Shown here: positions 16,867-19,989 of the stretch, piece by piece
How positions within the stretch are numbered: position 1 is the first letter of the stretch
Layout of the letters: every line of letters starts with the position of its first letter
Virus record (IMG/VR): IMGVR_UViG_2737471849_000007
Reading direction: 5' to 3' (one strand)
Origin: a virus
Lineage: Duplodnaviria; Heunggongvirae; Uroviricota; Caudoviricetes
DNA: 22,608 nt
Notes under the pieces: generated by a model
Databases searched by the model: none
Seen by the model: the letters and a program-made list of their open reading frames with translations, nothing else
What the model was told of the DNA's origin: nothing
Program-made: the position numbers and the translations under genes

Positions 16867-17277
16867 TTAGCGTGGTAAGATCTGTGTAGTTTTCTGGATG
16901 CTTTCAGTAAATAGTAATGAATTATCAAAGGTATAGTAATATCTTTTTTGTTCGTGGATATTTGTAACCCACCGAAAAACTCCTGCTTTAGCAAGGTTTC
17001 TTCTGTATTCCTGAAATGTGATCTCTCTGGATTTCAGCTTATTAGAGGTCGTTTCTATAAGATGCCTATCCTTTGAAAATTTGACAGACACAATGTTTTT
17101 TAGGCCCTTTAATAACACTGTATTATCATTTTTTAATACAATATGAACATTCTCTGTGGCTAAATAGTAAATGTAATGTGAGACATTGTGACGTTTTAGC
17201 TCAGAATAAAACCATTGATAGTTTAAATCGTTTCGAACTTTATCAAATATTTGTTTAAAAATGACTACCTGATCCAT
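16867..17277 (-). CDS. ydfO: DUF1398-like prophage protein YdfO (136 aa)
   Basis: Internal ATG of track ORF 16867..17292 gives 136 aa [28 protein letters not shown]... Confidence 0.78.
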
Positions 17278-17334
17278 AGATAAACCTTCCATGTGATATG
17301 AGGGGGCGTAGTCTGCACGATTATCTAAATTGCT

Positions 17335-17508
17335 TCAATCTGGTCTGACCTGTTTTCTGAGCAATTCAGTAATGTCACTCTTTTCTTTGTTTGCTTCAGA
17401 AGAAACTCTTTTTTCTGAGCACAGTCTCCGGCGGCAGGCTTCAATGACCCAGGCTGAGAAATTCCCGGACCCTTTTTGCTCAAGAGCGATGTTAATTTGT
17501 TCAATCAT
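17335..17508 (-). CDS. Putative ribbon-helix-helix small protein (57 aa)
   Basis: Minus-strand [60 protein letters not shown]; N-terminus fits an RHH (Arc/CopG-like) beta-strand plus helix; weak RBS; overlaps the 5' end of the stfQ ORF; below track cutoff. Confidence 0.35.
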
Positions 17509-18726
17509 TTGGTTAGGAAATCAACGTTACCTTCTGCCCGTAAGGTGAATGGTAAGGCGCTTTCAGCGGATATAACACTGACGCCGAAAGATATTGGTAC
17601 GCTTAACTCAACAACAATGTCATTCAGCGGTGGTGCTGGTTGGTTCAAATTAGCAACGGTAACCATGCCACAGGCGAGTTCTGTTGTTTCAATTACGTTG
17701 ATTGGTGGCGCTGGATTTAACGTGGGGTTATCTCAACAGGCAGGTATATCTGAACTTGTTTTACGTGCAGGTAATGGTAATCCGAAGGGGATTACTGGTG
17801 CTTTATGGCAGCGCACATCGACAGGGTTTACAAATTTTGCCTGGGTCAATACATCTGGTGATACTTACGATATTTACGTTGCAATCGGAAATTATGCGAC
17901 TGGTGTAAATATTCAATGGGATTATACCAGTAATGCCAGCGTGACGATTCATACGTCACCAGCATATTCTGCTAATAAGCCGGAAGGGTTAACGGACGGT
18001 ACAGTTTATTCACTCTATACGCCATCAGAGCAGTTTTATCCGCCTGGCGCACCAATCCCGTGGCCATCAGATACCGTTCCGTCTGGCTATGCCCTGATGC
18101 AGGGGCAGACTTTTGACAAATCTGCATACCCGAAACTTGCAGCCGCTTATCCGTCAGGCGTGATCCCTGATATGCGTGGCTGGACGATTAAGGGCAAACC
18201 TGCCAGTGGTCGGGCCGTATTGTCTCAGGAACAGGACGGCATTAAATCGCATACCCACAGCGCCAGCGCATCCAGTACGGATTTGGGGACGAAAACCACA
18301 TCGTCGTTTGATTACGGCACTAAATCCACGAATAACACTGGTGCGCATACCCATAGTTTAAGTGGCAGCACGAATGCAGCTGGTAATCACAGCCATAGAG
18401 ATGGCCGTCGATTTAACCCCAGTGTTTTTAAAGATACTTATCAATATGGTTATACAAGCTCAGGTCAAAATACCTGGGGTGTACAAGGCTCAGTAGGTAT
18501 GTCTACGGGGTGGTTAGCGAATACCAGTACAGATGGTAATCATAGCCATTCACTGTCCGGCACAGCAGCATCTGCAGGTGCACACGCGCATACTGTCGGT
18601 ATTGGTGCTCATACGCACTCCGTTGCGATTGGTTCACATGGACACACCATCACCGTTAACGCTGCTGGTAACGCGGAAAACACCGTCAAAAACATCGCAT
18701 TTAACTATATTGTGAGGCTTGCATAA
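17476..18726 (+). CDS. stfQ: Side tail fibre protein, C-terminal remnant (start uncertain; TTG at 17476)
   Basis: Track ORF of 416 aa, Gly/Ser/Thr-rich with repeated His-containing motifs (GAHTHS, GNHSHS, GAHAHT, GSHGHT) typical of tail-fibre receptor-binding tips; directly followed by the tail-fibre assembly gene. Confidence 0.68.
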
Positions 18727-19301
18727 TGGCATTCAGAATGAGTGAACAACCACGGACCATAAAAATTTATAATCTGCTGGCCGGAACTAATGAATTTATT
18801 GGTGAAGGTGACGCATATATTCCGCCTCATACAGGTCTGCCAGCAAACAGTACCGATATTGCACCACCAGATATTCCTGCTGGCTTTGTGGCTGTTTTCA
18901 ACAGTGATAAGGCATCGTGGCATCTCGTTGAAGACCATCGGGGTAAAACGGTTTATGACGTAGCGTCAGGGGACGCGTTATTTATTTCTGAACTCGGTCC
19001 GTTACCGGAAAATGTTACCTGGTTATCGCCGGAAGGGGAGTTTCAGAAGTGGAACGGCACAGCCTGGGTGAAAGATGCAGAAGCAGAAAAACTGTTCCGG
19101 ATCCGAGAGGCGGAAGAAACAAAAAACAGCCTGATGCAGGTAGCCAGTGAGCATATTGCGCCACTTCAGGATGCTGTAGATCTGGAAATCGCAACGGAGG
19201 AAGAAACCTCATTGCTGGAAGCCTGGAAAAAGTATCGGGTGTTGCTGAACCGTGTTGATACGTCAACTGCACAGGATATTGAATGGCCAGCACTGCCGTA
19301 G
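18726..19301 (+). CDS. tfaQ: Tail fibre assembly protein (191 aa)
   Basis: Track ORF; ATG overlaps the stfQ stop (TAATG); adjacent to the Pin invertase gene. Confidence 0.85.
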
Positions 19302-19398: not shown

Positions 19399-19989
19399 TT
19401 ATATGTCAGGTGTCTGAAGTTTTGCTTTGGCTCTTAAAATGGTTTGCCGCGAGGTTTTGAATTCCCGGGCAATGGCACTTATACTTACACCTGACTTAAT
19501 TCGTTCGAATACCACCTGTTTCTGTTCTTCATTTAACACAGGTGGTCGACCAAAACGTTTCCCTGCGCCGCGGGCTCTTACTATCCCGGAATGAGTGCGT
19601 TCAAGTAAAAGGTCTCGTTCAAATTCAGCGACTGCTGAAATTACGTGCATCATCATTTTTCCTGTTGGACTGGTCAGGTCAATGCCCCCCAATGCTAAGC
19701 AATGCACTCTGATACCTGTTTCGGTCAGTTGTTCCACTGTTTTCCTGATATCCATTGCATTACAACCAAGGCGATCCAGTTTTGTCACAATCAATTGATC
19801 ACCACATTTCAGGCGAGCAAGCAACCGGTTAAAACCAGGACGCTCACTGGTTGCTGCTGAGCCGCTAATGTGTTCTTCGATTATTTGCTGAGGTTTGATT
19901 TTAAAACCTGCACTTTCGATTTCCCGGCGTTGATTTTCGATGGTCTGATCCAGCGTTGATATCCGACAGTAAGCAAAAATTCGAGACAT
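19399..19989 (-). CDS. pinQ: Serine-recombinase DNA invertase Pin (Hin/Gin/Cin family), 196 aa
   Basis: Track [25 protein letters not shown]... with catalytic Ser motif and C-terminal HTH. Confidence 0.92.

Follow-up and report, generated by a model that had tools for sequence, protein, structure and literature searches.

Does a short open reading frame that faces a tail-fibre remnant in a decayed prophage encode a new DNA-binding protein, or is it what a deletion left of a known gene? The frame lies in a 22,608-nt stretch of viral DNA (IMG/VR record IMGVR_UViG_2737471849_000007), which we refer to in its entirety as the window. The original prediction had read the frame as a small ribbon-helix-helix (RHH) protein, of the kind found among Arc/CopG repressors and type II antitoxins.

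The whole window proved to be a Qin-type lambdoid prophage of E. coli. Several complete genomes covered 95–97% of it at ≥ 99% identity, and the K-12 order of dicB, relBE, hokD, cspB/F/I, the lysis genes, ydfO, tfaQ, pinQ and ydfJ is kept. Homology and annotation placed a tfaQ-like tail fibre assembly gene at 18726–19301 (plus strand) and a pinQ/pinR-like serine invertase gene at 19399–19989 (minus strand).

Identity of the 57-aa reading frame

The frame itself is real. The ORF list of the window contains an ORF of 57 aa that starts with ATG and occupies 17335–17508 on the minus strand, and its translation is the one quoted in the original prediction. The ORF matched the Pfam family DUF3950 (PF13132) with 76.5 bits (cutoff 25; E 1.4e-21), and phrog_949 with an E value of 6.7e-19. 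With the NCBIfam model YlcI_YnfO_N (NF041551), it scored 21.1 bits, below the cutoff of 30, whereas full-length K-12 YnfO scored 36.6 bits, above it; the window ORF falls under the cutoff because just profile positions 13–37 are retained. Judged by its sequence, the 57-aa ORF is no chance reading frame.

Alignment revealed that the ORF is identical to residues 21–77 of YnfO of the K-12 Qin prophage (b4533, WP_001368374.1), a protein of 77 aa in its intact form (RefSeq annotation, ‘YlcI/YnfO family protein’). By K-12 identity and the DUF3950 match, 17335–17508 corresponds to ynfO codons 21–77 plus the stop codon, the 3′ three-quarters of the gene. Annotation and alignment of TOK-001 agree with this identity and with the truncation. 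The comparison with the ynfO/nohA region of K-12 that had been suggested with the original prediction likewise put the ORF at the position of ynfO. The two copies are alike in their position upstream of ydfO, in strand and in the flank up to 17520. Beyond ynfO, K-12 continues with nohA and cos; in the window, the tail-fibre remnant follows directly instead.

The 57-aa ORF retains helix A from its third residue on, helix B and a variable tail. The helix pair, with its motif N-F-S-A-W-V-x-E-A-C, is kept and identical to K-12. Missing are the N-terminal basic segment and the invariant I-R-F(P) motif: their codons have been deleted, except that F17–Q20 lie behind stops. We conclude with considerable confidence that the ORF is a 5′-truncated, most likely non-functional remnant of ynfO, the small gene that adjoins cos in Qin- and lambda-type phages and runs counter to the late operon. 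The feature belongs to an already known family, and this copy is probably dead. YnfO is listed as uncharacterized (PMC11551758).

The deletion junction

The window and K-12 are 100% identical from ydfO to base 17520 and unrelated past it, and the same was seen with many other genomes. All ynfO-derived DNA, that is, codons 17–77 plus the stop codon, lies at 17335–17520 (minus strand), where identity to K-12 ends. Read on the coding strand, the sequence upstream of the ORF is ...*R*FPNQM; codons 17–20 (FPNQ) remain, with in-frame stops before them. A filler of 7 nt, TCAACGT, follows at 17521–17527. It is absent from both K-12 ynfO and intact stf, and no source was found for it in 270 related loci. 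The 9-mer AAATCAACG at the filler also occurs within pin (about 19929–19937 of the window, antisense), probably by chance.

Locus comparison placed the dinucleotide TA at 17528–17529, at a recurrent tail-fibre breakpoint described below (native GGGTA/CCTTCTGCCCG, with the break at the slash). The remainder, 17530–18726 on the plus strand, is a C-terminal stf remnant with Collar and Phage_fiber domains and without a native start. Its left border was set by alignment with intact genes, annotated as ‘prophage tail fiber N-terminal domain-containing protein’, which match the window solely from 17530 onward. The deletion joins ynfO codon 17 to this C-terminal third, roughly 400 codons, of the side tail fibre gene. 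Compared with K-12, the window lacks ynfO codons 1–16, the start codon with the ribosome site, all DNA upstream of the gene including the ynfO–nohA intergenic region, cos, nohA, and all head and tail genes. This intergenic region corresponds to the cos region of lambda. The proposal that the ORF sits at the junction of a head/tail gene deletion was thus borne out, the junction being that between ynfO and the tail-fibre remnant.

The exact junction was absent from 5426 complete E. coli genomes, from species-representative genomes, from IMG/VR and from the JGI metagenomes, and the deletion is a private and probably recent one. Other Qin variants carry deletions of their own. In TOK-001 (L003, 22463–24574), terminase A is fused in frame to the tail fibre with a junction at window-equivalent 18169, and in K-12 (L001, 5728–5943), nohA is joined to stfQ near window-equivalent 18032. 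The head and tail genes of this lineage were thus removed in several independent events.

The ORF list of the window also contains a plus-strand ORF of 416 codons with the Collar and Phage_fiber domains (17476–18726), which overlaps the 57-aa ORF. The overlap had been noticed in the original prediction, together with the argument that the two starts could not both be right. The overlap stands, and the argument was too generous. From the ORF list and translation, 17476–17529 (plus strand) is a false 5′ extension of the stf frame into antisense ynfO: the TTG ‘start’ lies inside antisense ynfO and exists for the sole reason that no stop codon happens to interrupt this frame at the junction. Both remnants, of ynfO and of stf, have lost their native starts. 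Neither start assignment is therefore right, and the overlap at the stf ‘start’ is artefactual.

On the ynfO side, four independent rearrangement junctions, that of the window among them, fell within 12 nt of codons 17–21 (window 17509–17521), in lookups that were biased to this region. Junctions of ynfO with nu1 (L008/L010, about 2989) and with the N-terminal part of stf (L009, about 2989) had an endpoint within 2 nt of that of the window, and the break in a Tfa(1–45)::YnfO(21–77) fusion protein (P0014; L273, 3636) lay 10 nt from it. In an unbiased viral sample, none of 120 loci was non-native. We regard the ynfO-side endpoint as a weakly supported hot spot.

Fold of the YnfO family

The conserved core of YnfO, residues 1–49, consists of a basic N-terminus, the invariant I-R-F(P), helix A (residues ∼ 19–32), a G-S-G-N turn and helix B, which opens at a nearly invariant N-F-S-A-W-V. 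Using a 23-sequence alignment, we obtained an AF2 model of a 77-aa member with pLDDT values of 79–89 for residues 11–50. In this model, residues 14–18 are non-helical and extended, residues 19–32 are helical, G33-S-G-N36 forms a turn and a further helix runs from residue 37. The pLDDT of the helix-turn-helix stretch was 83–89, and N36 and S38 are nearly invariant. The two helices and the short G-x-S/T/N-type turn of the RHH superfamily are present in the modelled protein.

Profile searches with the 23 family members yielded matches to phrog_497 (HicB-like) for 15 of them (best E 8.3e-5), to phrog_228 (Arc-like repressor) for three (6.8e-4) and to an NCBIfam relaxosome accessory family for two (6.4e-4). 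When the family was aligned by hhalign with Arc, the probability was 2.6% and not significant; the register was right, with the Arc strand FNLRWP on YnfO NIRFP (Arc strand plus helix A, MPQFNLRWPREVLDLV...). The same comparison with the RelB encoded in the window gave a probability of 0.1%, also not significant. A Foldseek search with the 77-aa model found no meaningful match in PDB or BFVD; the family profile against PDB sequences found no solved RHH protein, a chance match to GGDEF/EAL (E 1.8) being the sole one; and Pfam, at E values up to 10, gave no RHH family for any of the 23 members. Taken together, we consider it likely that the intact YnfO family has the RHH fold, and intact YnfO is probably a dimeric RHH DNA-binding protein.

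The RHH assignment of the original prediction thus holds, most likely, for the family; the window copy has lost the ribbon. The peptide MIEQINI had been taken for the beta-strand, wrongly: the strand motif is R-N-I-R-F-P, residues 13–18 of the 77-aa K-12 protein, which lies upstream of this Met, and a 12-residue segment of the ORF is helix A in the AF2 models. The segment that would form the RHH N-terminal strand is conserved (residues 14–18) and non-helical in the intact family, and is absent from the window ORF. A structure prediction of the 57-aa peptide, proposed as a check on the RHH reading, returned two helices (residues 3–12 and 17–53) and no strand, with a pLDDT of 62.

In RHH proteins such as Arc, MetJ and CopG, the N-terminal strand is the DNA-reading element. 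Unlike Arc, the C-terminal domains of HicB, KacA and the ParD-type antitoxins, the window fragment is without this strand, and hence without the element that reads DNA. Because both the ribbon and the expression signals are missing, the fragment would be inactive, or at most a two-helix peptide.

Intact YnfO, lambda and the packaging site

YlcI of DLP12 and the 64-aa right-end ORF of lambda are 98% identical to K-12 YnfO over residues 1–54. Like K-12 ynfO, their genes lie on the leftward strand between the lysis region and cos. They differ from YnfO in the C-terminal tail, and both are separated from the DUF1398 gene by a ybcW-like gene of opposite orientation. In the lambda sequence PV340536.1 (L272), the 64-aa homologue is found at 1801–1995, about 390 nt from the start of nu1, across cos. 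It has been left unannotated in several deposited lambda genomes. A separate set of sequences, P0016–P0120, comprises dozens of noisy, frameshift-like YnfO variants from ENA contigs about 3.5 kb long. These resemble assemblies of lambda DNA with many errors, possibly of sequencing control DNA, and make the family seem more diverse than it is.

As the simplest function, we infer that YnfO would be a local regulator or autoregulator encoded at the lambdoid right end and transcribed leftward. Intact YnfO may act as a small regulator, of transcription or at DNA sites, of prophage right-end genes, and it possibly autoregulates ynfO(-ydfO), the ‘moron’ region. A PdhR SELEX peak has been reported in the ynfO/ydfO region (PMC7660256).

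The position of the gene, about 250 bp from cosN in both lambda and Qin, fits with a different role as well, in which members of the family would be accessory DNA-binding factors for packaging-site recognition and not transcription regulators. The YnfO family is listed next to TerS and TerL in capsid-forming PICIs (PMC13612085). Two distant homologues, P0190 and P0209, are fusions of a YnfO-like N-terminal domain with that of a small terminase (Terminase_2, E 1.6e-11; PHROG TerS families down to 2.6e-18). These fusions hint at DNA recognition in packaging for some phages. However, ynfO and the late operon are encoded on opposite strands, the gene is missing from many lambdoid phages, and distant homologues are found in islands without packaging genes. 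In addition, the gene sits between lysis and cos, a region of lambda that is treated as non-essential in established genetics. A packaging function for the family is therefore unlikely, and local regulation is the reading that we prefer.

Where YnfO translation starts

The ATG of the 57-aa ORF is internal codon 21 of intact ynfO. If YnfO were translated from this codon, the ORF would be an intact small gene of 57 aa whose coding sequence was spared by the deletion and whose product is still made. The Pfam DUF3950 model (30 positions, residues 21–50) does start exactly at M21, and the ORF keeps the ATG and the whole domain. Moreover, exactly this 57-aa product is called in 821 blocks across the assembly collection, some of them with an intact 77-codon frame; L004, L005 and L007 are examples of such intact loci. 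Against this stands the conservation, at the protein level and in every homologue, of the 20 residues before M21: I15 and R16 are invariant and F17 is nearly so (family alignment A2). Homologues with wholly divergent C-termini all begin MS(S/T)KNRTRRTTTRNIRFPNQM, those at 30–50% identity retain K-x-I-R-F-P, upstream of M21, and the 64-aa lambda copy has the same N-terminus as K-12 YnfO. No Shine-Dalgarno sequence precedes M21 (TTTCCTAACCAAATG), and the long form is the one used by RefSeq (77 aa) and by the NCBIfam model. In the window, all of the DNA that precedes codon 17 is foreign, being tail-fibre sequence in antisense with stops.

On these grounds, M21 is unlikely to be the true start of YnfO and M1 is favoured, although a shorter isoform may initiate at M21. 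That the window retains an intact and expressed 57-aa gene is very unlikely; a truncated remnant of the 77-codon gene agrees better with the conserved N-terminus. A consensus promoter scan found no sigma-70-like site upstream of the window ORF. The scan was also blank upstream of intact K-12 ynfO, so that its silence in the window is uninformative.

Neighbouring genes and the antitoxin reading

The original prediction had allowed for a type II antitoxin and suggested a search for its partner toxin. The sole candidate is ydfO (DUF1398; 16867–17277, minus strand), which is co-directional with ynfO and lies 57 nt 3′ of its stop codon. The ydfO product is identical to PDB 2HH8 (E 2e-90); it has 136 aa by the RefSeq start, within a 141-aa ORF that begins at the ATG at 17292. 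We scored the collected loci, with 141 ynfO-like copies, for a co-directional DUF1398 gene within 2.5 kb. Such a gene was present downstream of ynfO in 85 of the 141 copies. No DUF1398 gene lay downstream in at least 40 copies that had 96–100% identical ynfO cores and enough flanking sequence. The genes of distant YnfO homologues had no DUF1398 gene next to them; they lay by themselves in islands, where their neighbours were fimbrial genes, restriction genes or an integrase. Conversely, K-12 has a DUF1398 gene without ynfO in ycgX, which adjoins bluR. In lambda, the order is the 64-aa ynfO homologue, the ybcW-like gene on the other strand and then DUF1398. Past residue 50, YnfO is completely different between close homologues, such that the C-terminal tail is unconserved; in RHH antitoxins this tail is the toxin-binding part. 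Neither YnfO nor YdfO matched a PADLOC family.

It is thus highly improbable that YnfO and YdfO form a type II pair, with YnfO as the RHH antitoxin, YdfO as the toxin and the remnant as a disabled antitoxin: YdfO is not a constant neighbour and each gene occurs without the other, an opposite-strand gene separates the two in lambda, the tails are unconserved, PADLOC is blank, and the strain carries ydfO beside a ynfO that has lost its 5′ end, a combination that would be hard to tolerate if YdfO were a real toxin.

A recurrent breakpoint in side tail fibre genes

The stf end of the window deletion, at TA/CCTTCTGCCCG (17528–17530), falls on a breakpoint that recurs in side tail fibre genes (window 17528–17545; native GGGTA/CCTTCTGCCCGTAAGG). 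The breakpoint was seen in loci L002, L013, L020–L047, L071–L132, L264 and L265. A complete scan of IMG/VR, using an anchor 30 nt to the right of the breakpoint, yielded 106 loci, and in these every non-native left flank within 300 nt begins at one point, ...TA/CCTTCTGCCCGTAAGG. Counting IMG/VR and closed genomes, at least 20 different left partners have been joined to this point, in prophages independent of one another. The partners include Nu1, gpA, gpW, gpC, portal, tape measure, gpJ (at two positions), Lom, the N-terminal part of stf (at two positions), TerS-like and ParB-like genes, and others.

The native sequence of the partner could be recovered in 19 cases. TA was present at the exchange point in 15 of these, and the other four were one base off. 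One inversion was found with both of its reciprocal junctions, at which no base had been gained or lost (L047 and L265, from one IMG sample). Here, the stf site has been exchanged with a site in a portal gene, on two contigs, and the orientation of the flanking genes identifies the event as an inversion. The junctions are not consistently in frame, and selection for fusion proteins is therefore no explanation for the recurrence.

TA at the partner sites and an exactly reciprocal inversion are typical of conservative site-specific recombination with a crossover of 2 bp. We tentatively raise the possibility that the stf site behaves like the crossover of an unrecognised system of this type, with an exchange of the 2-bp TA; we would not call it probable. 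If true, the decay of lambdoid prophages would be driven in part by a defined recombination site and not by random deletion.

Two known sources of such breaks were considered. The crossover site of Pin (Hin family) was rejected, as the exchange point lies outside the sole pix-like stretch. The method recovered pixL exactly in e14; the stf site has just CCTTCT-CC in common with the Pin site. No Pin site was found near stf in the window, no canonical pix site anywhere within the window, and no second copy of the stf site nearby in either orientation. In a 2025 paper, PinQ was reported to invert the P segment of e14 in trans and thereby to block adsorption of phage T2, and PinQ, PinR and PinE were reported to use the canonical Pin site (PMC12529663), which also disfavours a Pin origin. 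A pin gene was located downstream at four of seven junction loci, as against 10 of 45, a weak enrichment. An insertion sequence end, or an adjacent deletion mediated by an insertion sequence, is unlikely because neither the junctions nor the native site showed an insertion sequence.

Implications

These results correct the annotation of the locus: the 57-aa frame is, in our reading, a pseudogene fragment of ynfO and no new repressor or antitoxin, and both of the overlapping starts are unreal. The YlcI/YnfO family, present in lambda itself beside cos, is still uncharacterized and probably of the RHH type. Its strand lies outside Pfam DUF3950 and outside the many gene calls that begin at Met21, and this may be why YnfO has not been recognised as DNA-binding. 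The strikingly recurrent breakpoint in the tail fibre genes may be a sign that a site-specific process contributes to the decay of prophages.
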